Shown here one piece after another: positions 237-8,084 of a stretch of DNA of 32,000 bases. This stretch comes from Fibrobacter succinogenes subsp. succinogenes S85 (GTDB taxonomy: Bacteria; Fibrobacterota; Fibrobacteria; Fibrobacterales; Fibrobacteraceae). The position numbers and the translations under genes are program-made. How positions within the stretch are numbered: the stretch's first letter is position 1; the number at the start of each line of letters is the position of its first letter. The stretch lies in assembly GCF_000146505.1 (NCBI RefSeq), contig NC_017448.1, positions 1,920,001-1,952,000 on the forward strand, in the 5' to 3' direction. Under the pieces are notes generated by a model. It had not been told where the DNA came from, searched no databases, and worked only from the letters and a program-made list of their open reading frames with translations.

Positions 237-1385
237 ATGAAAAAAAATAAGAAACCGGTAATTCTCATTACTGGGTATTTGGGTTCTGGCAAAACGACAC
301 TTTTAAACAATATTCTCAAGCAAGAGAAGCGAAAAGTCGCCCTCATCGTGAATGATATGGGCAGCATCAACGTTGATGCCGAAATTTTAAAGAAGAACGG
401 TTCAAATGTCACCGAATGTCCAATGTTTGAATTGCAAAACGGTTGCATTTGCTGCACTCTGCGCGATGAATTCATTCAGCAAATCGAGAAGATTTCCAAT
501 CTTGATTCTATCGAAGTCGTATTTGTTGAAGCCTCCGGCATCAGTGACCCCGGCGCCGTCAGCGCAAGCTTCCTCGCCTACGAAGATGAAAATCCCAACA
601 CGAACGTTTACTTAACTTCCATCGTCACGGTGGTCGATGCCGACCGTATTTACCGAGAATTTCTGAGCGACCTCAAGCTCAGAAAAGACGAAATGTTTAA
701 CGACATCGAACTTTCTCAAGAAGAAATATCAACGCTTATTGTTGACCAGATTGAATTTTGCAACTTCATCGCCTTGAACAAATGCGATTTGCTCAGCGAA
801 GACCAACTGAAAGAAGTGGAATCCATCGTACGTGATTTCCAGACTCGCGCCCCGATCATCCGCTCGGTCAACGCCGAAATTGACATTGACAAGATTATGA
901 CGAAAAAGCCGTTCAACTACGGGCAAATAGACTCCTCGTCCGCAATCCAGAAGGCCATGGAAAGCCTAAAAAACCCCAGCCGTTCAAGCAGCGGTTGCGT
1001 TGATGAATACGGAATTTCTTCATTTGTCTTTGAAGCCCGCAAACCGTTCAACAGAGAACGCTTCATGGAATTTGTAAACAACCGCTACCCCACACAGCTC
1101 ATCCGTTCCAAGGGCTACATCTGGTTCTCGGACTGCAGCCGCGACGTGCAACTTTTTGAACAGGCAGGTCGCAATTCGTCAGTAATGCCAGTTTCATATT
1201 GGATCGATGCACTCCAGGAAGACGTAAAGCAATCCTATATTGCAAGCAATCCCGAGCTCAAGGAAAACTGGGATTCCCGATTTGGCGACCGAGAAAACCA
1301 GGTCGTATTCATCGGAAGGGGCTACAACAAGGACGAGATCATGCTCGAACTTGAAAAGTGCCTGGACGAGCGGGCGATCGCCTAG
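237..1385 (+). CDS. COG0523-family (CobW/YciC/ZigA-like) GTPase, putative zinc metallochaperone
   Basis: P-loop GYLGSGKTTLLN near the N-terminus; the COG0523 hallmark CxCC motif (GCICCTL); NKCD G4 motif; CobW C-terminal-type region; sits next to zur-znuACB. Confidence 0.9.
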   Translation: MKKNKKPVILITGYLGSGKTTLLNNILKQEKRKVALIVNDMGSINVDAEILKKNGSNVTECPMFELQNGCICCTLRDEFIQQIEKISNLDSIEVVFVEASGISDPGAVSASFLAYEDENPNTNVYLTSIVTVVDADRIYREFLSDLKLRKDEMFNDIELSQEEISTLIVDQIEFCNFIALNKCDLLSEDQLKEVESIVRDFQTRAPIIRSVNAEIDIDKIMTKKPFNYGQIDSSSAIQKAMESLKNPSRSSSGCVDEYGISSFVFEARKPFNRERFMEFVNNRYPTQLIRSKGYIWFSDCSRDVQLFEQAGRNSSVMPVSYWIDALQEDVKQSYIASNPELKENWDSRFGDRENQVVFIGRGYNKDEIMLELEKCLDERAIA

Positions 1386-1393
1386 TGGCATAC

Positions 1394-1422
1394 TTGACAA
1401 TCATTCTCAAATTGACTAAATT
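1394..1422 (+). promoter_or_regulatory. Sigma70-like promoter of the zur operon overlapped by a Zur-box-like palindrome
   Basis: TTGACA (1394-1399), a 17-nt spacer, then TAAATT (1417-1422). The palindrome TTGACAATCATTCTCAA (1394-1410, 7 of 8 arm pairs) covers the -35 and spacer, and its core matches the box at 184-206. Confidence 0.5.
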
Positions 1423-1455
1423 TCAATTTGGGAATGAATTGCATTTTCAAAGGCA

Positions 1456-1866
1456 ATGGTGAAAATGGTTAAAACGGAATACAAAACACAGACTCGCCAG
1501 ATGATTCTGGACTATATGGTCAAAAATCCTGACCGTATTTTCAAGGCTTCCGAAATTGCACAAAGTCTGCCCGATGTTTCGTTGAGCACCATCTACCGCA
1601 ATTTGGCAAGGCTTGAAGAAGCAGGAATGGTGCAAATCGTTGGAGCCGAAAAGAACAACGAACTTCAATACCGCTATACAGGCCCGGGCCGCTGCGCCTC
1701 CAAGATGCACCTCGTCTGCAAAGACTGCGGAAAGTTTTTTCATCTGGAAGGTCCCGCGCTCCGCCTTTTGCAGCATTCCATTGAACGCCTGAATGGCTTC
1801 ATTCTTGACCAGCAGCAATCGGTTTTACTCGGCCATTGCGCCGTTTGCAGCAGACAAAGGAAATAA
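1456..1866 (+). CDS. zur: Fur-family transcriptional regulator, most likely Zur
   Basis: Winged-helix segment (..ASEIAQSLPDVSLSTIYRNLARLEEAGMV..). Two CxxC pairs (CKDCGKFFH and CAVC) typical of the Fur-family structural Zn site. Context between the COG0523 gene and znuA. The start could instead be the ATG at 1465. Confidence 0.8.
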   Translation: MVKMVKTEYKTQTRQMILDYMVKNPDRIFKASEIAQSLPDVSLSTIYRNLARLEEAGMVQIVGAEKNNELQYRYTGPGRCASKMHLVCKDCGKFFHLEGPALRLLQHSIERLNGFILDQQQSVLLGHCAVCSRQRK

Positions 1867-1867
1867 A

Positions 1868-2134
1868 TTGTTCCATTTATTTGACAAGTTGGTGGTAGCG
1901 ATAGCGCTCTTTTACGCAGAGCACCGCACAGAACATCATTGTCATGGCGAGCATTGCCACGTCTGCCACCACATCCACCATTGTCTGGATATCATTTCAG
2001 AATTTTGTTTTGAGCTTGTTGAAGCTCCGATAGCATCAACTTGCCGTTGCTTTCTTTTTAAGTTGGTAAAGTTCGCAGTCATCGTACTGCGCCCGACAAC
2101 GCTTGTTTCACAAAAAATATTACTGCTAAATTAA
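1868..2134 (+). CDS. Small (about 88 aa) His/Cys-rich two-hydrophobic-segment protein, paralog of 5231..5509 (TTG start proposed)
   Basis: This is the part of track ORF 1793..2134 that lies after the zur stop. TTG at 1868 is preceded by AAGGA (1857-1861). The core EHCHVCHHIHHCLDI aligns with EDCPICALIHECEDI of ORF 5231..5509 (8/15 identical, including all 3 Cys). Total length and hydrophobic N- and C-segments are similar. The nucleotide sequences have diverged, so conservation is at the protein level. Confidence 0.45.
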   Translation: MFHLFDKLVVAIALFYAEHRTEHHCHGEHCHVCHHIHHCLDIISEFCFELVEAPIASTCRCFLFKLVKFAVIVLRPTTLVSQKILLLN

Positions 2135-2204
2135 TTTTCAAAGCAGAACAACAACACAACAAGCAGTTTTCCACAAAAATTCCAACATTCCCAAAAGGAT
2201 AAAA

Positions 2205-3197
2205 ATGAAAAAAATTTATTCTCTGGCCTGCGCCATTTTCGTCGCAGCCTTGTTCGCTTTTGTCGCCTGCAACGACGCTCCCCAAAACAACACCACCAAA
2301 GAAAGCAAGCTTTCTGTGGTCACCACCATCTTCCCCGAATTTTCTTGGGCAAAGTCCATTCTCGGTGATCAAACCAATTCCGTAGATCTCGCTTTGCTAA
2401 TCAAGAACGGCATCGACCTGCACAGTTTCAAGCCGACCGCACAAGACATCGCAAAGATTGCAAGCGCCGACATGGTCATTTACGTTGGTGGTGAATCCGA
2501 CGATTGGATTGAAAAAGCTCTTGAAGCAACACCGAAAAAAGGCCGCACAGAAATCAACTTGATGAAGGTTCTTGGCGACCGCGTAAAGGTGGAAGAAGTT
2601 GTCGAAGGCATGCAAGCCGAAGAAGAACACGAGCACCATCACCACGATGAAGAAGTCGAAAACGATGAACATGTTTGGCTTTCACTGAAAAATGCCGAAA
2701 TAATCGTCAATAAAATTGCCGAAGAACTTTCCAAGCTTGATGCCGCCCACGCAACAGTCTACAAGCAAAACGCCGATGCCTACATTGCCCAAATCCAGTC
2801 CCTTGATAAAGAATATCGCGAGGCCGTCAATGGAGCCACCCGCAAGACGGTCCTCTTTGGTGACAGATTCCCATTTCGCTATCTGGTGGACGATTATGGT
2901 ATTAAGTATTATGCCGCGTTTGTTGGTTGCTCCGCTGAGAGCGAGGCAAGTTTCGAGACCATCGCATTCCTCGCAGGAAAAATGGATGCAGAATCGCTTC
3001 CGGTAATTTTCACGATCGAGAACAGCAACGATAAAATCGCCAAGGCCGTCCTCGCTGCAAGCAAAAATTCCAAGAGCGCACAAATCCTCTCCATTAATTC
3101 AATGCAATCCATCACAGAAGCACAAATCGCAGGAGGCATAGATTACCTCTCGCTGATGAAATCCAATTTGGACGTTCTGAAAAAAGCATTGAACTAA
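2205..3197 (+). CDS. znuA: Zinc ABC transporter substrate-binding lipoprotein (ZnuA-type, cluster A-I)
   Basis: Lipobox LFAFVAC; acidic His-rich loop EEEHEHHHHDEEVENDEH typical of ZnuA; DEHVW motif; followed by ATPase and permease genes. Confidence 0.85.
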   Translation: MKKIYSLACAIFVAALFAFVACNDAPQNNTTKESKLSVVTTIFPEFSWAKSILGDQTNSVDLALLIKNGIDLHSFKPTAQDIAKIASADMVIYVGGESDDWIEKALEATPKKGRTEINLMKVLGDRVKVEEVVEGMQAEEEHEHHHHDEEVENDEHVWLSLKNAEIIVNKIAEELSKLDAAHATVYKQNADAYIAQIQSLDKEYREAVNGATRKTVLFGDRFPFRYLVDDYGIKYYAAFVGCSAESEASFETIAFLAGKMDAESLPVIFTIENSNDKIAKAVLAASKNSKSAQILSINSMQSITEAQIAGGIDYLSLMKSNLDVLKKALN

Positions 3198-3223
3198 TTT
3201 CTCTCTTGCTAAGAATAAATCGC

Positions 3224-3904
3224 ATGAATAACAATTTAAATACAAATTCCATAAGTCAAACAAAAAGCCCTTTACTCAAGTGCAGCAACATCACACTTGG
3301 TTACGGGAGCAAGAACATTGTAAACAACTTCAACTATACGATTCATTCAGGCGATTATCTTAGCATTATCGGTCGGAATGGTTGCGGCAAGACAACTTTT
3401 TTGCGCGGGCTCGCAGGCGTTTTGCACCCAAGAGCCGGCAAAATTGAACTCAGCAGCGGCCTAAAGCGAAACCAGATTGGTTACCTGCCACAAATAACAG
3501 TGACGCAAAAAGATTTTCCCGCATCTGTTGAAGAAATTGTTCTCTCGGCGTTCCAAGGGAAAAACCTTTTATTACCATTCTACGGGAAAGCCCTCCGCAA
3601 GCGTGCAGACGAGTGTTTGGAATTGACGCACGCCACAAATTTGCGCAAGGAAAGCTTCCGTGAACTTTCGGGAGGCCAAAAGCAGCGCGTTCTTTTAGCA
3701 AGGGCATTATGCGCTGCCGAAAGGCTTCTGCTTTTAGACGAGCCCGTCACTGGGCTCGATCCCGAATCATCGCAAAACATGTACAACATCATCAAGGACC
3801 TTCACGAAAACAAGAACATGACCATCGTGATGGTAACGCATGATATAGACGCCGCCCGCAACAACTCCACCCGAATACTGAACTTCAACGAAATAATGCA
3901 ATAG
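3224..3904 (+). CDS. znuC: Zinc ABC transporter ATP-binding protein
   Basis: Walker A GRNGCGKTT, signature LSGGQKQR, Walker B LLLLDEP, H-loop VTHD. I prefer the ATG at 3224 to the TTG at 3206 used in the track. Confidence 0.85.
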   Translation: MNNNLNTNSISQTKSPLLKCSNITLGYGSKNIVNNFNYTIHSGDYLSIIGRNGCGKTTFLRGLAGVLHPRAGKIELSSGLKRNQIGYLPQITVTQKDFPASVEEIVLSAFQGKNLLLPFYGKALRKRADECLELTHATNLRKESFRELSGGQKQRVLLARALCAAERLLLLDEPVTGLDPESSQNMYNIIKDLHENKNMTIVMVTHDIDAARNNSTRILNFNEIMQ

Positions 3905-3915
3905 TAACCTGTTTA

Positions 3916-3936
3916 CTAACCACTAATCACTAACCA
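3916..3936. repeat. Heptanucleotide tandem array (CTAAYCA)x3 in the znuC-znuB spacer
   Basis: Read directly: ctaacca ctaatca ctaacca. Confidence 0.9.
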
Positions 3937-3943
3937 CTTTGTA

Positions 3944-4786
3944 ATGCTCGACAAACTCTTCTTCTACCTAGACTTCCCTTTTGTTCGTTATGCGATTATC
4001 GTAGGAACACTCATATCGCTGTGTTCCTCGCTTTTGGGAGTCACGCTCGTTCTAAAGCGCTATTCTTACATTGGCGACGGACTTTCACACGTTGCATTCG
4101 GAGCACTCGCAATCGCGGCAGTTCTTAAAGTCACGAACAACATGCTCATCATTTTGCCCGTGACCATCGTTGTAGCCATTTTGCTCCTCTGCGGAGGTAA
4201 AGACGCGCGAATCAAAGGCGACGCCGCCATTGCCATGGTATCGGCGGGGGCTCTAGCCATCGGCTATCTGCTAATGAACATTTTCTCGTCTTCGGCAAAT
4301 ATCGCAGGCGATGTTTGCACAACGCTTTTCGGTTCCATGTCCATTCTTACGCTCAAGCCGACAGACGTTTATCTTTGCGTAACCCTTTCTGCAATCGTCC
4401 TTGTCACATTCGTCCTCTTTTACCACAAGATTTTCGCCATCACCTTTGACGAAAATTTCGCACGAGCGACAGGCGTCAACGTCAATTTTTTCAACCTCCT
4501 TATCGCAATCATTATCGCAGCGATTATCGTCCTTGCCATGAATCTCGTCGGAGCTTTGCTCGTTTCGGCGCTCGTTGTTTTCCCCGCGCTTTCAGCCATG
4601 CGAGTTTTCAAAAGCTTTTTCACGGTAACAGTTGCTGCAGCCACAATTTCTGTAATCTGCTCACTTACAGGAATCATCGCCGCCATACTTGCCGGGACTC
4701 CTGTGGGTTCAACAATTGTCGCAGCAGACATAGTCGCATTCCTCATTTGCTTCATTGCAAGTACCCTTCGTAATAGGAGAATGTAA
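3944..4786 (+). CDS. znuB: Zinc ABC transporter permease
   Basis: Polytopic hydrophobic protein of about 280 aa, the ABC-3 family size and pattern, immediately after znuC. Confidence 0.85.
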   Translation: MLDKLFFYLDFPFVRYAIIVGTLISLCSSLLGVTLVLKRYSYIGDGLSHVAFGALAIAAVLKVTNNMLIILPVTIVVAILLLCGGKDARIKGDAAIAMVSAGALAIGYLLMNIFSSSANIAGDVCTTLFGSMSILTLKPTDVYLCVTLSAIVLVTFVLFYHKIFAITFDENFARATGVNVNFFNLLIAIIIAAIIVLAMNLVGALLVSALVVFPALSAMRVFKSFFTVTVAAATISVICSLTGIIAAILAGTPVGSTIVAADIVAFLICFIASTLRNRRM

Positions 4787-4787
4787 T

Positions 4788-5213
4788 TTGCATAAAGCAT
4801 TCACCATCATCCTCACAGCACTCGTTTTTACCGTATCTGCTTTTGCCAAAGTATCCACAAATACTCACGCCGATATTGATCTCACGCGCATGAGCAGTAC
4901 CATGGTCTATTCCATAGTTTATCAAATGGTCACCGACCCACAAAAATACACCGGCAAGACCATCAAAATGAAAGGAATATTTTCAAGCTACGTTGACGAA
5001 GAGACAAACCGTCGCTTTTTCGGTTGCGTCATCAAGGACGCTCTCGCCTGTTGCTCGCAAGGTCTCGCTTTTGAGCTTGCCAAGCCACGTAAATATCCAA
5101 GCGAATATCCATCCGAAGGAGCATCCATCACCATCATCGGAACTTTTGAATTCGAAAAAGAAGAAGACGGAATCGGATTCCCGATTATCAAGGACGCCAT
5201 ACTTTTCAGATAA
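4788..5213 (+). CDS. Secreted or lipid-anchored small protein with a CC motif, operon partner of znuACB
   Basis: A TTG at 4788 lies 1 nt after the znuB stop and 8 nt after GGAGA, giving a signal peptide (HKAFTIILTALVFTVSAFA). The segment YTGKTIKMKGIF..FFGCVIKDALACCSQG..ITIIGTFE recalls, from memory, the C-terminal domain of DUF1980/TIGR03943 proteins found in low-zinc regulons. Confidence 0.5.
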   Translation: MHKAFTIILTALVFTVSAFAKVSTNTHADIDLTRMSSTMVYSIVYQMVTDPQKYTGKTIKMKGIFSSYVDEETNRRFFGCVIKDALACCSQGLAFELAKPRKYPSEYPSEGASITIIGTFEFEKEEDGIGFPIIKDAILFR

Positions 5214-5230
5214 TTTCGTAAATCAGTCCA

Positions 5231-5509
5231 ATGATAAACCTATTGAACATGCGTAAATTCGCCATTGTGCTTATCGCGGCAAGCCTTTTGGCAATTGCCC
5301 AGCATCACCATGACGATTTTGACGGTCACGAAGACTGCCCTATTTGCGCATTGATTCACGAATGCGAAGACATTAAAGACCATACACCAGAAGTTACTGT
5401 TTTCTGGTTCATTCTTTTCCTTATAACTATACCACACCTCACACAAAAAACTTTTTCAACAATCCTTCATTACAGGCCACGCGGCCCGCCTAACATCTGT
5501 TTGGCATAA
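5231..5509 (+). CDS. Small His/Cys-rich membrane protein, paralog of 1868..2134
   Basis: N-terminal hydrophobic segment (MRKFAIVLIAASLLAIA), the cluster HHHDDFDGHEDCPICALIHECEDIKDH, and a second hydrophobic segment (VTVFWFILFLITIP). The start may be the second ATG at 5249. It is the last gene before the hairpin at 5540-5569. Confidence 0.55.
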   Translation: MINLLNMRKFAIVLIAASLLAIAQHHHDDFDGHEDCPICALIHECEDIKDHTPEVTVFWFILFLITIPHLTQKTFSTILHYRPRGPPNICLA

Positions 5510-5539
5510 CTCATCCAAAAAAAATAAAGAACACAAGTC

Positions 5540-5569
5540 CGCCTAATTACACCTCTTTAGGCGCTTTTG
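5540..5569 (+). terminator. Terminator candidate ending the zur-znu operon
   Basis: Stem cgcctaa (5540-5546) pairs with ttaggcg (5557-5563), followed by cttttg. Confidence 0.45.
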
Positions 5570-5588
5570 AAACGTTGTCTTAAAAAAA

Positions 5589-5600
5589 GCACAACTGTGC
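5589..5600. promoter_or_regulatory. Perfect 5-2-5 inverted repeat GCACA-AC-TGTGC just upstream of the lipoprotein/TonB-receptor pair
   Basis: Read directly, flanked by A runs, 17 nt upstream of the ATG at 5618. Operator function is inferred only. Confidence 0.3.
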
Positions 5601-5617
5601 AAAAAAAAGGATTTATA

Positions 5618-6121
5618 ATGAAAAAGATTCAATGCTTGGCAATAGCACTTCTCTGTTCACTCTTCGCCGCATGCAGCGACAGCAATTCCACCTCCACCGA
5701 TCAGCACGAACACTTCGAAGCCGAAGGTTGGAACCTCTACTGGCCCGACAGGAAACTCGCCTACAGCGTTTACCAGGGCAAAGAAGACACAAGTCTTGAA
5801 ACGCTCCGCGTCAATGCAAACTGCCTTAGCGAACATTTGACCGTTAAGTTCCTTGATGACGAAAAGAAAGAAGTTTCCGCACCCAAGGACGACGAGCACA
5901 CACTCGGCTGGAGCATTGGCGACGAATCTATCCTCGACATCGAAGCATGTGGCAGCTGGGGTTTCCACTTAAAGGGCGTCAAGGAAGGCGAAACAACGTT
6001 GACGCTCAAGGTCAAGCACCACGATCATGCCGACGCACGTACGCCGGAAATTCGCGTCATTGTCGACAAAGCCTTGAAGGCAGAAGATTGCCCGTTCCAG
6101 GACGATGACGATGATGACTAA
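5618..6121 (+). CDS. Lipoprotein with His-rich patches and a hexa-Asp C-terminus, partner of the TonB-dependent receptor
   Basis: ATG at 5618 preceded by AAGGA; lipobox LFAACSD; HEHFEAEGW and KHHDHAD patches; a Big_2/Ig-like looking segment (GVKEGETTLTLKV); ends in DDDDDD. Its last 17 nt overlap the receptor start. Confidence 0.7.
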   Translation: MKKIQCLAIALLCSLFAACSDSNSTSTDQHEHFEAEGWNLYWPDRKLAYSVYQGKEDTSLETLRVNANCLSEHLTVKFLDDEKKEVSAPKDDEHTLGWSIGDESILDIEACGSWGFHLKGVKEGETTLTLKVKHHDHADARTPEIRVIVDKALKAEDCPFQDDDDDD

Positions 6122-8084
6122 CACCCTTTTTAGGGCTGTCATGGGGAGCCTCCTTTGCGGAGGCTTCCTTCATTTTTCTCTTGCCCAAGAATTTATCCAA
6201 GATTTAGGCAATTCAACAGTTATTGCCGAGCAATCTAGCGAAACAATTTTAAATGGCCTCCGCGAAGACGAAGTTTTAAAAGACGAAAAACTTAACCGCA
6301 AAATTTCTACAACTATCGCAGAGACTATAAAAAACGAGCCCGATATTGCCATCCGTTCGATGGGCCCTGCCGCCGCACGCCCTGTCATCAAGGGGCTTTC
6401 AAGCAGTCACGTCACGCTTACCGAAGACGGTTCCTTTTGCGGAGACATGAGCGCCACCTCGCCCGATCACGCCGTTGCATCCGAAGTCCTGACCGCACAC
6501 AAATTGCGCATCACGCGCGGACCGCAAATTCTCGCACAATCTTTCGCCACCGCAGGCGGTGTCATTCAAGTCAATCACCAAGACATTCCCTACGATGATT
6601 CGCTTTTCCACAGCAACATTGCAAACTACGCCGAAACAGGCCAACCGGGATTCGCAACCGTTATCAGTGCAAATGCCAACGTTCACGGCGTTTCGCTCAA
6701 AGGTGAAGTTTCCGCCCGCAACATGGGCGACATGGAAACATCCAAAGGCACGCTCAAAAATACGGATATCGAAAACAGGAGCATCGCCATCGGTGCCGCC
6801 TACAGCCTCGAACACTTCAAATTCGGAGCATCCTTCCGCTCGTTCAATTCCGATTACGGCATTCCCGGCGGATTCATCGGTGGTCACCCCAACGGCGTAG
6901 ACATTGAACTATCCAAACGCGATTTTACTTTGCAAGGACTGTACATTCCCGCAGCCCGCCCCGACACACTGAACGTCATCTTCCGTTACAATCAATACCA
7001 CCACAAGGAATTTGAGACAAAGAAATACGTCGGTGCAGAATTCGCTGTCAATCAGGCAAACTTGCGCATTGAAAAATTCATCGCCAATAGCGGTCCATTT
7101 TTCGGCATCCACCTCGGTACAGAACTAGACAGCCGCTCTGTCGAAATGGGCGGTTACGTCTTTACACCACCCACCAATTCTTACGCCGCATCGCTATTTT
7201 CCATCGCTAGCATAAACGGATGGGATGGTTTAGAAATCACCTTATCCGCACGACTTGGCGGAGCATTTTTCAGGCCACGCGAAAGCGTCGTTGCAGACAA
7301 AGACGCTATTGAAGACCGCAATTTTGCACTATGGGCTTTCGCTGCCGAATTTTCACAAATCGTCGCCCCCGGGAAATTCCTGACTCTTGATGTTTTCCGC
7401 ACCACACGCGCCCCGACCATCGAAGAACTCTACAACCAAGGTCCGCATCTCGCCGCCTACACTTACGAACGCGGCTATCACAAGCTCGATGATGAAAGCG
7501 GTTACGGAGCAGAACTCGAATTTCGAGATTACGGCGAGCACTTCAACTGGCGAGCCTCAACACACATCACCTGGTTCCTGAATCACTTGGCACCACGCGC
7601 CACTGGAGACACCAACTGGTCCCAACTTTTGCCGATTTATCAAGTCAGCGGAGACGACGCGCTCCTCATGGGCGCAAACGCATCCATCGAGACTTCTGCA
7701 GAGCAGGGATTCTATGCCCAAGCAGGCGCAAGTTATGTTTGTGGATTCTACCAGAACGAAAACTGGAGCGATATGCCACAAATTCCGCCGTTCCATTTTC
7801 ACGCCGAAATGGCTTACATCTGGCAACACGTCCGCGCAGGAATTAACACGGAATTTGCGCTCGCGCAAAACCGCCTAGACCGCTACGAACAACGCACACC
7901 CGGCTATATCACGTTTGGTGCGCTCCTAGAATTCCACTGGTCGCTTGCACTCGCCAATTACAGCATTGTCCTCCGTGGCGATAACGTGTTCAACGCCGAC
8001 GTACGCAACCATCTTTCTCGACTCAAATCCGTCATGCCCGAGAAAGGACGCAATATAAGCATCCTCGCAAAAGTCGAGATTTAG
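6105..8084 (+). CDS. TonB-dependent outer-membrane receptor (metal-type; zinc or copper uptake suspected from context)
   Basis: Signal peptide. Plug-domain motifs (IRSMGPAAARPVIKGLSSSHVTLTEDG, then ITRGPQ..AGGVIQV). Long beta-barrel-like region with alternating hydrophobicity. Alternative ATGs at 6111 and 6114. Confidence 0.85.
   Translation: MTMMTNTLFRAVMGSLLCGGFLHFSLAQEFIQDLGNSTVIAEQSSETILNGLREDEVLKDEKLNRKISTTIAETIKNEPDIAIRSMGPAAARPVIKGLSSSHVTLTEDGSFCGDMSATSPDHAVASEVLTAHKLRITRGPQILAQSFATAGGVIQVNHQDIPYDDSLFHSNIANYAETGQPGFATVISANANVHGVSLKGEVSARNMGDMETSKGTLKNTDIENRSIAIGAAYSLEHFKFGASFRSFNSDYGIPGGFIGGHPNGVDIELSKRDFTLQGLYIPAARPDTLNVIFRYNQYHHKEFETKKYVGAEFAVNQANLRIEKFIANSGPFFGIHLGTELDSRSVEMGGYVFTPPTNSYAASLFSIASINGWDGLEITLSARLGGAFFRPRESVVADKDAIEDRNFALWAFAAEFSQIVAPGKFLTLDVFRTTRAPTIEELYNQGPHLAAYTYERGYHKLDDESGYGAELEFRDYGEHFNWRASTHITWFLNHLAPRATGDTNWSQLLPIYQVSGDDALLMGANASIETSAEQGFYAQAGASYVCGFYQNENWSDMPQIPPFHFHAEMAYIWQHVRAGINTEFALAQNRLDRYEQRTPGYITFGALLEFHWSLALANYSIVLRGDNVFNADVRNHLSRLKSVMPEKGRNISILAKVEI

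Follow-up and report, generated by a model that had tools for sequence, protein, structure and literature searches.

CruR (Bp2923, DUF2946) of Bordetella pertussis is a copper-responsive upstream open reading frame (ORF) defined by the layout CXXC-45(+/-2)-RAPP-3 together with an export signal (PMC9426467). CutF of Rhodobacter capsulatus is a DUF2946-like periplasmic copper sensor whose stall melts a stem-loop that hides the Shine-Dalgarno sequence (PMC9973294; bioRxiv 10.1101/2025.02.05.636593). Proteins of this type are small and exported, act only in cis as copper-sensing ribosome-arrest peptides with a CXXC or CxxxC motif, are followed at the distance of a long spacer by a TonB receptor gene or another metal gene, and gate the next gene via Rho termination or a Shine-Dalgarno-hiding stem-loop (PMC9426467; PMC9973294). 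Of the known core arrest motifs, RGPP and RAPP are the strongest, and small secreted proteins encoded upstream of TonB receptors are enriched for them at the C-terminus (PMC12992588, PMC10951233). Here we describe two small ORFs in a stretch of 32,000 nucleotides from Fibrobacter succinogenes subsp. succinogenes S85 (contig NC_017448.1, positions 1,920,001 to 1,952,000; hereafter the window), the first 8 kb of which form a single same-strand zinc-starvation cluster. P1 is hidden between zur and znuA, and P2 lies in front of a lipoprotein gene and a TonB-dependent receptor gene (Table 1). Both are real and under purifying selection. We judge the chances to be about even that P1 and P2 both act in cis as metal-sensing leader ORFs on a common plan. 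The plan would comprise a hydrophobic segment at the N-terminus, then a Cys/His motif that binds metal, then about 44 residues of spacer and, where the ORF ends, an invariant motif. By analogy with the known systems this reading is well supported for P2; for P1 it is only hypothetical.

P2 and the DUF2946 leader peptides

Inspection together with hydropathy gives the N-terminus of P2 as MRK, a 14-residue hydrophobic core and AIA|Q, and the protein is predicted to carry the export signal that belongs to the DUF2946 definition. The order of elements then runs HHH...H-E-D-C-P-I-C, 44 residues, RGPP, five residues and the stop codon. P2 is present in 21 of the 24 loci (window and relatives) that have the lipoprotein-receptor pair, and is missing from every locus that continues beyond the neighbouring gene orf152 and has no receptor. 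In these 21 loci the CxxC (5336-5347, C36xxC39) is invariant with synonymous codon variation, and so is R[AG]PP (RGPP in 14, RAPP in 7), which stands 3-5 residues from the stop. The two motifs are separated by 44 residues in 20/21 Fibrobacter loci and 43 in the remaining one. Entropies at the three codon positions of P2 are 0.87/0.63/1.34. A RAPP-like string in an alternative frame within zur (about position 1755) was dismissed as a chance match. Three Fibrobacter genomes without P2 retain the lipoprotein and the TonB receptor, and there the lipoprotein gene abuts orf152.

Sixteen of the 17 P2-family members match PF11162 (DUF2946), with a best E = 4.5e-4 and all of them under the cut-off, and none of 33 P1 members does. 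We file P2, from its sequence, as a distant relative of DUF2946 (CruR/CutF) that would work like them, and by the same profile comparison P1 is not a DUF2946 member. An earlier note on this DNA had loosely compared both ORFs to DUF2946-type proteins; the comparison holds for P2, with its weak matches and its CxxC-spacer-R[AG]PP geometry, and fails for P1.

The spacer between P2 and the lipoprotein gene contains a terminator-like hairpin (5540-5563) followed by CTTTTG and a second hairpin (5589-5600), and in relatives the corresponding spacers are 65-303 nucleotides (nt) long, again with hairpins. Immediately past RAPP, one Fibrobacter group has codons (CTCTCTC) that pair with the lipoprotein gene's ribosome-binding site (GAGAGA), which is the same arrangement as in SecM and CutF. 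Several spacers of close relatives, after P1 as well as after P2, hold repeated GC-rich hairpin units such as GTCATTCCCGCGAAGGCGGGACAAT and CATGCCC...GGGCAT; these look like a small family of palindromic repeats inserted in regulatory gaps.

P2 could instead be a stable periplasmic or membrane-anchored metal-binding protein that relays zinc between ZnuA and either the TonB receptor or the lipoprotein. The predicted signal peptide, the His-rich CxxC cluster, the hydrophobic stretch and the adjoining receptor would all suit such a relay. However, PR[AG]PP is invariant at 3-5 residues from the stop and at the CruR-specific distance from CxxC, RGPP is the most avoided and the strongest arrest tetrapeptide, CruR and CutF work in cis and are broken down once exported, and a long structured spacer lies 3' of P2. 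We consider the relay improbable. The earlier note had offered "membrane-tethered metal relays or sensors"; the sensor half can be kept, but relay is probably wrong for P2 because DUF2946 proteins are nascent-chain sensors, and by this analogy a membrane relay seems less likely than a nascent-chain sensor.

P1 and its family between zur and znuA

P1 is a real gene hidden in an annotated gap. The earlier note had read a concealed ORF opening with TTG at 1868 behind AAGGA, and its coordinates and sequence are as described. The start codon and the zur stop (TAA, 1864-1866) are one base apart, the AAGGA-N5-6-start layout is also found at znuA and at the lipoprotein gene, and the 88-codon frame includes HRTEHHCHGEHCHVCHHIHHCLDI. 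A protein search with P1 returned 32 homologue clusters, mostly called at exactly 88 amino acids. The frame, whose conservation in relatives the earlier note had proposed as a check, is free of stops and frameshifts in all 32 Fibrobacter species loci of a genome scan, with ATG, GTG or TTG at or adjoining the homologous start position in every one. It stays open at identities down to 40%, with codon-position entropies of 0.65/0.41/1.23 and a median ratio of non-synonymous to synonymous substitution rates (dN/dS) of 0.10. Third-position variation and low dN/dS extend to the His/Cys block and the last eleven residues; therefore, conservation acts at the level of the peptide and not of a DNA site. 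The exact P1 protein, tried with four start variants, is not in a collection of 15 billion proteins in which P2 is present.

That P1 is unannotated in this genome and sits in a regulatory gap could suggest that the frame 1868-2134 is a chance ORF, or that its conservation stems from a DNA or RNA element. A frame open in 32 species, variability dominated by third positions, dN/dS of about 0.1 and 194 homologous cluster representatives across phyla all contradict this, and the codon-level analysis refutes it; we give it virtually no weight. The narrower proposal that the invariant tail is a DNA element (Zur box or promoter) was ruled out as well, since its third codon positions vary freely.

The 194 P1-family matches come from an exhaustive profile search of 1.8 billion cluster representatives. 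Nearly all are 95-105 amino acids long and align end to end, and they are distributed over Clostridia, Treponema and Margulisbacteria; P1 aligns with the wide family over its full length (hhalign, 99.6%, E = 1.7e-23). Family members have a K/R-rich start followed by a hydrophobic helix of about 22 residues, the motif E-A-x-H-[DH]-C-x-G-E-[DH]-C-[PH]-[IV]-C-x2-I-x2-C, a poorly conserved second hydrophobic stretch and the tail [TS]-[LP]-[VI]-S-x-K-[VI]-[RK]-L-x-[ND], after which the stop codon comes directly. The tail follows CxxC at a spacing of 44 in 97/124 representatives (range 42-46) and starts, in 123 of the 124, at a distance of exactly 11 residues from the end. Pfam and NCBIfam scans of P1 and ten distant members gave only spurious sub-threshold matches (FA_hydroxylase, CbtB), and the existing labels of family proteins are absent, "hypothetical" or wrong ("AraC family regulator"). 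A 509-amino-acid predicted protein holds the N-terminal half of a P1-like sequence, through the Cys/His motif, and is probably a chimeric assembly or gene call.

Gene order around the family is strict. In the window and in 32 Fibrobacter loci the P1 ORF stands directly before znuA or another Zur-regulon gene, usually right behind zur. Among 80 gut-metagenome loci sampled with the P1 subfamily alignment, ZnuA lies immediately 3' of the P1-family ORF in 77/77 informative loci and a Fur/Zur gene lies 5' of it in 71/76. With X standing for the P1-family ORF, Lacrimispora has the order zur-X-znuACB-cobW-...-DUF1980, Treponema has zur-X-cobW with no adjacent znuABC, and Margulisbacteria and others have X-znuACB, where X is first in the operon. 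In 8 Fibrobacter species that have no upstream zur, P1 is the first gene of the operon, directly behind a perfect Zur-box palindrome (AAATTGAGAATnATTCTCAATTT). A tblastn search with a P1-family member and P2 against plasmid and phage collections gave no matches; therefore, neither the P1 family nor P2 consists of mobile-element genes. Judged by these profiles and by gene order, the P1 family is a large, undescribed, cross-phylum family of small zur-znuA ORFs. Its extent, and its fixed place between zur and znuA, go beyond the earlier note.

The metal motif of P1 has the family signature HxCxGExCx[IV]Cx5C. The tail is invariant across 33 Fibrobacter sequences and may be an arrest or termination-control module, for which we regard it as a candidate. 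Every tail codon except the last is free at position 3. The last codon is AAT in 31/31 Asn-ending Fibrobacter tails, where AAT makes up 32% of Asn codons in neighbouring genes, and AAT or GAT in 27/29 distinct tails from other phyla. These codons put U before the stop, contrary to local codon usage, and such selection on the base that precedes the stop suggests a role for the termination step or for local RNA structure. A conserved spacer motif, TCAATTCAA, is in many Fibrobacter loci the complement of TTGAATTGA (Leu-Asn-stop).

The earlier note had also given P1 two transmembrane helices. The longest uncharged runs in Fibrobacter P1 are only 10-11 and 6-7 residues, against 22 and 18 in the wider family; hydropathy thus does not support the two helices, and P1 of Fibrobacter is no convincing membrane protein. 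Fibrobacter P1 has thus mostly lost both hydrophobic segments and has kept motif, spacing and tail. Membrane insertion of P1 seems dispensable, as it is for the CruR signal peptide.

In 19/33 Fibrobacter loci, the tail codons K-[VI]-L-L (AAGUCCUUU) are the part of the ORF that pairs best with the znuA ribosome-binding site (AAAGGACUU), with free energies (dG) of -9 to -18.6 kcal/mol. RNAalifold picks this long-range helix, and compensatory changes (GUC/GAC, AUC/GAU, GGUCC/GGACC) occur in it. A ribosome on the last P1 codons would free the znuA Shine-Dalgarno sequence, and its release would let the helix re-close. Pairing of the tail with the Shine-Dalgarno sequence is also present in some Treponema loci. 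In some gut Clostridial loci the tail/stop region pairs with the GGAGG region round a terminator-like three-way hairpin that is followed by a U-tract, and in one Clostridial lineage a plain Shine-Dalgarno-hiding hairpin begins five bases past the P1-family stop. A uniform RNA mechanism, with one terminator or one Shine-Dalgarno-hiding hairpin throughout, was considered and rejected: the spacers are lineage-specific and the window has neither element after P1. The 70-nt P1-znuA spacer of the window shows no stable structure.

The pairing in many relatives, together with the single base between the zur stop and the P1 start, would also be expected if P1 served passive translational coupling from zur to znuA, opening the znuA ribosome-binding site with no sensing or stalling. 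Such coupling leaves unexplained the invariant Cys/His motif, the fixed 44-residue spacing and the cross-phylum tail, as well as the loci without zur where a P1-family ORF heads the operon; moreover, the pairing is missing in the window. We regard passive coupling as highly improbable.

A more serious alternative is that the P1 family consists of stable, trans-acting small zinc-binding proteins whose tail is a docking peptide. They would be two-helix membrane proteins in Clostridia and Treponema and peripheral or cytosolic in Fibrobacter, and might serve as a zinc chaperone or antenna for ZnuA/ZnuB, as an MntS-like modulator of ZnuABC or Zur, or as a zinc buffer. The wider family's Cys4/His site and its two evident hydrophobic segments, with uncharged runs of 22 and 18 residues, agree with this, as do the strong conservation at the peptide level and the strict linkage to zur and znuA; fixed length would be natural for a helical hairpin, and AlphaFold gives two helices. 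However, the sequence of the second hydrophobic segment is not conserved, and Fibrobacter has kept spacing and tail through the decay of both segments. The Treponema gene precedes cobW with no adjacent znuABC, contrary to what an obligate transporter subunit would require. A role at the level of mRNA or ribosome is indicated by selection on the final codon and by the anti-Shine-Dalgarno tail codons, and the proteins that have the homologous module of P2/DUF2946 work only in cis and cannot be detected in cells. We think a trans-acting P1 rather unlikely on balance, and even in that case P1 would be a new conserved component of the Zur/ZnuABC system.

Relation of P1 to P2 and the proposed mechanism

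The earlier note had called P1 and P2 paralogous on the strength of a 15-residue motif with 8 identical residues encoded by differing codons. The count is borne out, with 23/45 identical bases and 3 identical codons, and BLASTP of P1 against P2 gives E = 5e-4. When only the two Fibrobacter families are compared as profiles, the result (14% probability) is too weak for homology, but the motif match is retained in a proper alignment that goes through the wide P1 family (hhalign against the P2 family, 91.6%, E = 8e-7, 26 columns). This alignment spans only the end of the first helix and the E-D-C-P-I-C-x2-I module. The three aligned Cys of the earlier note reduce to fewer, since the third is not conserved in the P2 family and is Gly in most members. 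Both families have an invariant terminal motif 44 residues past CxxC, and these motifs are unrelated (TLVSxKVxLxN-stop in the P1 family, PR[AG]PPxxxx-stop in the P2 family). The paralogy claim therefore stands for the N-terminal segment and the Cys/His motif and not for the C-terminal modules.

The leader-ORF reading of P1 and P2 starts from coding status, conservation, motif geometry, synteny and, in most relatives, base-pairing of the tail with the znuA Shine-Dalgarno sequence, all of which are directly established; from these we infer stalling, metal specificity and direction of regulation for both ORFs. In P2, the ribosome would stall at RGPP as the CxxC/His cluster just leaves the exit tunnel. 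Metal on the nascent chain would alter the duration of the stall, which in turn would set whether transcription and translation get past the structured 108-nt spacer to reach the genes for the lipoprotein and the TonB receptor. On the model of CruR, which likewise gates an uptake receptor, low metal would give a lasting stall and the ON state, and metal would give release and the OFF state.

In P1, zinc-dependent folding of the emerging Cys4/His motif would modulate the dwell of the ribosome on the last codons and thereby control znuA. For the family as a whole, the Cys4/His zinc knuckle would emerge about 50 residues behind the TLVSxK[VI]xLxN-stop tail, and the dwell would gate znuA or cobW via Shine-Dalgarno unmasking, terminator bypass or Rho. 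Such coupling is physically plausible because a small zinc-binding domain, folding in a zinc-dependent manner close to the tunnel exit, can produce enough force to release a SecM stall (PMC4571824). Our tentative view, which we hold at somewhat less than even odds, is that the P1 family represents a new proline-free class of regulatory nascent peptide in which folding of the knuckle sets the dwell on the stop and gates znuA/cobW.

Several observations weigh against the leader-ORF reading. On the side of P2, the score of 13.3 bits lies below the PF11162 gathering cut-off of 23.7, which leaves P2 outside formal Pfam membership, and P2 is internal to a long same-strand array, 17 nt past orf152, so that it can hardly be called the first gene of an operon. 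On the side of P1, the ORF has no known arrest motif, and its tail (TLVSQKILLLN) has no proline. Fixed length and a conserved tail would equally be expected of a small, structured protein with two helices and a docking tail, and anti-Shine-Dalgarno pairing would also come from ordinary translational coupling. The structures of P1 spacers vary by lineage, and pairing in Clostridial loci is inconsistent, with 13/34 distinct cases in the top 10%. The window (dG -0.5) and the six relatives closest to it lack pairing of the tail with the znuA Shine-Dalgarno sequence, which they have lost through synonymous changes. Therefore, any control by P1 here would have to use another route, and the G-poor spacer suggests Rho; by comparison with CruR it is weakly compatible with a Rho-type mechanism, although its G content is only moderately unusual (lowest 3% of 70-nt windows). 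AlphaFold2 gives low-confidence helices for P1 and P2 (predicted local distance difference test scores, pLDDT, of 63 and 60), which do not separate the readings.

Zinc uptake is held to be controlled almost wholly by Zur, at the level of transcription. If the leader-ORF reading of P1 and P2 is true, the operon would contain a second, translation-coupled zinc sensor, present also in many abundant gut anaerobes, and the Zur regulon would gain a post-transcriptional sensor in gut Clostridia, Treponema, Margulisbacteria and Fibrobacter. P2 would take the arrest-peptide mechanism of CruR/CutF from copper and Proteobacteria to a zinc-uptake locus and to Fibrobacterota. P1 reveals a cross-phylum family for which Pfam and NCBIfam have no model, possibly with a new arrest motif, and its class would be a sister to the copper-sensing CruR/CutF family, with a CruR-type ORF alongside it in this operon. 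No arrest peptide for zinc or znuA turned up in our literature searches.

Locus setting and comparison with known systems

Table 1. Features of the zinc-starvation cluster, in positions of the window.
Feature	Position	Strand	Remarks
cobW-type GTPase	237-1385	+	same-strand zinc cluster
Zur-box-like palindrome overlapping sigma-70-like promoter, 5' of zur	1394-1437	+	
zur, Fur-family regulator	1456-1866	+	PF01475, E = 1.2e-15
P1, unannotated 88-codon ORF	1868-2134	+	TTG start; AAGGA Shine-Dalgarno 1857-1861
P1 metal motif H23-C39, HHCHGEHCHVCHHIHHC	1934-1984	+	invariant H and C columns; synonymous third-position variation
P1 invariant tail T78-N88 (TLVSQKILLLN) and stop	2099-2134	+	44 residues past CxxC
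P1-znuA spacer	2135-2204	+	A/C-rich, 9% G; znuA Shine-Dalgarno AAGGA at 3' end
znuA	2205-3197	+	
znuC	3206-3904	+	
znuB	3944-4786	+	
orf152, secreted DUF1980_C-like protein	4755-5213	+	weak PF21537 match; syntenic across loci
P2, 92-amino-acid CruR/CutF-like leader ORF (candidate)	5231-5509	+	identical to FSU_1657/Fisuc_1196 of F. succinogenes S85
P2 predicted Sec signal peptide, MRKFAIVLIAASLLAIA	5249-5299	+	ends AxA; inspection and hydropathy
P2 metal motif, HHHDDFDGHEDCPICALIHEC	5303-5365	+	near-invariant HHH...H..CxxC
P2 RGPP arrest-type motif	5480-5491	+	44 residues past CxxC, 5 before stop
P2-lipoprotein spacer, 108 nt	5510-5617	+	hairpins; Shine-Dalgarno 5607-5611
His/Asp-rich lipoprotein	5618-6121	+	lipobox LFAAC
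TonB-dependent receptor, divergent	6105-8084	+	weak Plug domain match, E = 1.2e-3

The transcript zur-P1-znuACB...receptor probably starts at the element in front of zur. A promoter-like site (1394-1422) and an inverted repeat with 15-bp arms (1401-1437) are found here, the latter holding TTGACAATCATTCTCAA, which has one mismatch to TTGAGAATnATTCTCAA, a consensus taken from relatives; the palindrome itself occupies 1394-1410. The Zur-box consensus was derived from those relatives in which the palindrome directly precedes P1. A further Zur-box-like palindrome, TTGCAAATGATTCGCAA, lies before cobW at 187-203 and overlaps a promoter-like site, and a search of the window for such palindromes found no Zur box ahead of P2. 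Rfam and tRNA scans of the entire window gave no matches.

The znuA-znuC-znuB order is kept in 32 loci, and Pfam ZnuA, ABC_tran and ABC-3 are matched in the homologous operons. ZnuA of the window carries a His/Glu-rich loop, EEEHEHHHHDEEVENDEH; loops of this kind are typical of zinc-specific cluster A-I binding proteins. DUF1980 proteins, to which orf152 shows resemblance, also stand last in Clostridial znu operons, and in a Margulisbacteria contig ZnuB is fused to a DUF1980_C domain, which suggests that DUF1980_C is a conserved extracytoplasmic accessory domain of Znu systems. The 184-amino-acid ORF 5567-6121 has its true start at the ATG at 5618 and is a lipoprotein gene, the product of which has His-rich patches and a poly-Asp C-terminus overlapping the receptor start.

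Among known systems, MntS is a small metal-regulon protein with no fixed geometry relative to its own stop codon. As a small protein co-regulated with a metal regulator it is the model for a trans-acting P1, to which it has no homology. CzcI/CzcI2 of Cupriavidus and the products of DUF2946 genes before czr/czc zinc efflux operons are CutF-like, belong to a zinc, cobalt or cadmium context, and in some cases lack a C-terminal proline motif. Unlike the ORFs described here they precede efflux pumps and not uptake systems, and they have no known relation to the TLVSxK tail.

TnaC and SpeFL are ligand-dependent leader peptides that stall at or near the stop codon. The proposed mode of P1 resembles theirs in a conserved peptide that ends at the stop and in control via ribosome occupancy at the end of the leader. 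However, they have no sequence similarity to P1, and their ligand acts inside the tunnel, whereas the Cys4/His site proposed for P1 would lie about 50 residues from the peptidyl-transferase centre. With SecM, ApdA/ApdP and the RAPP/RGPP peptides, P2 shares the RGPP core near the C-terminus and a predicted export signal; SecM and ApdA/ApdP monitor protein export and not metals, and P1 has no such core.

In CutF the 3' end of the leader is RNA-paired to the downstream Shine-Dalgarno sequence; most Fibrobacter species show this for the P1 tail, and one group shows it for the P2 tail. CutF differs in having CxxxC and PPP, and copper raises its stalling and turns on a detoxifying oxidase; such pairing is also absent from the window. 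The targets here are uptake genes, and therefore a logic opposite to that of CutF is expected.

CruR resembles both ORFs in layout. P2 differs from it in belonging to a Zur-linked zinc operon of Fibrobacterota, in an additional HHH/His cluster, in a score below the Pfam threshold, in its place inside a longer same-strand array and in the lipoprotein between P2 and the receptor, and P1 differs in that RAPP is replaced by another invariant tail that ends at the stop. P1 is nevertheless like CruR in overall geometry and, in some species, in heading a Zur-box operon, while P2 is like CruR in its predicted export signal, its CXXC, the 44-45 residues from there to R[AG]PP, the position of this motif near the stop, the long spacer and the TonB receptor downstream.

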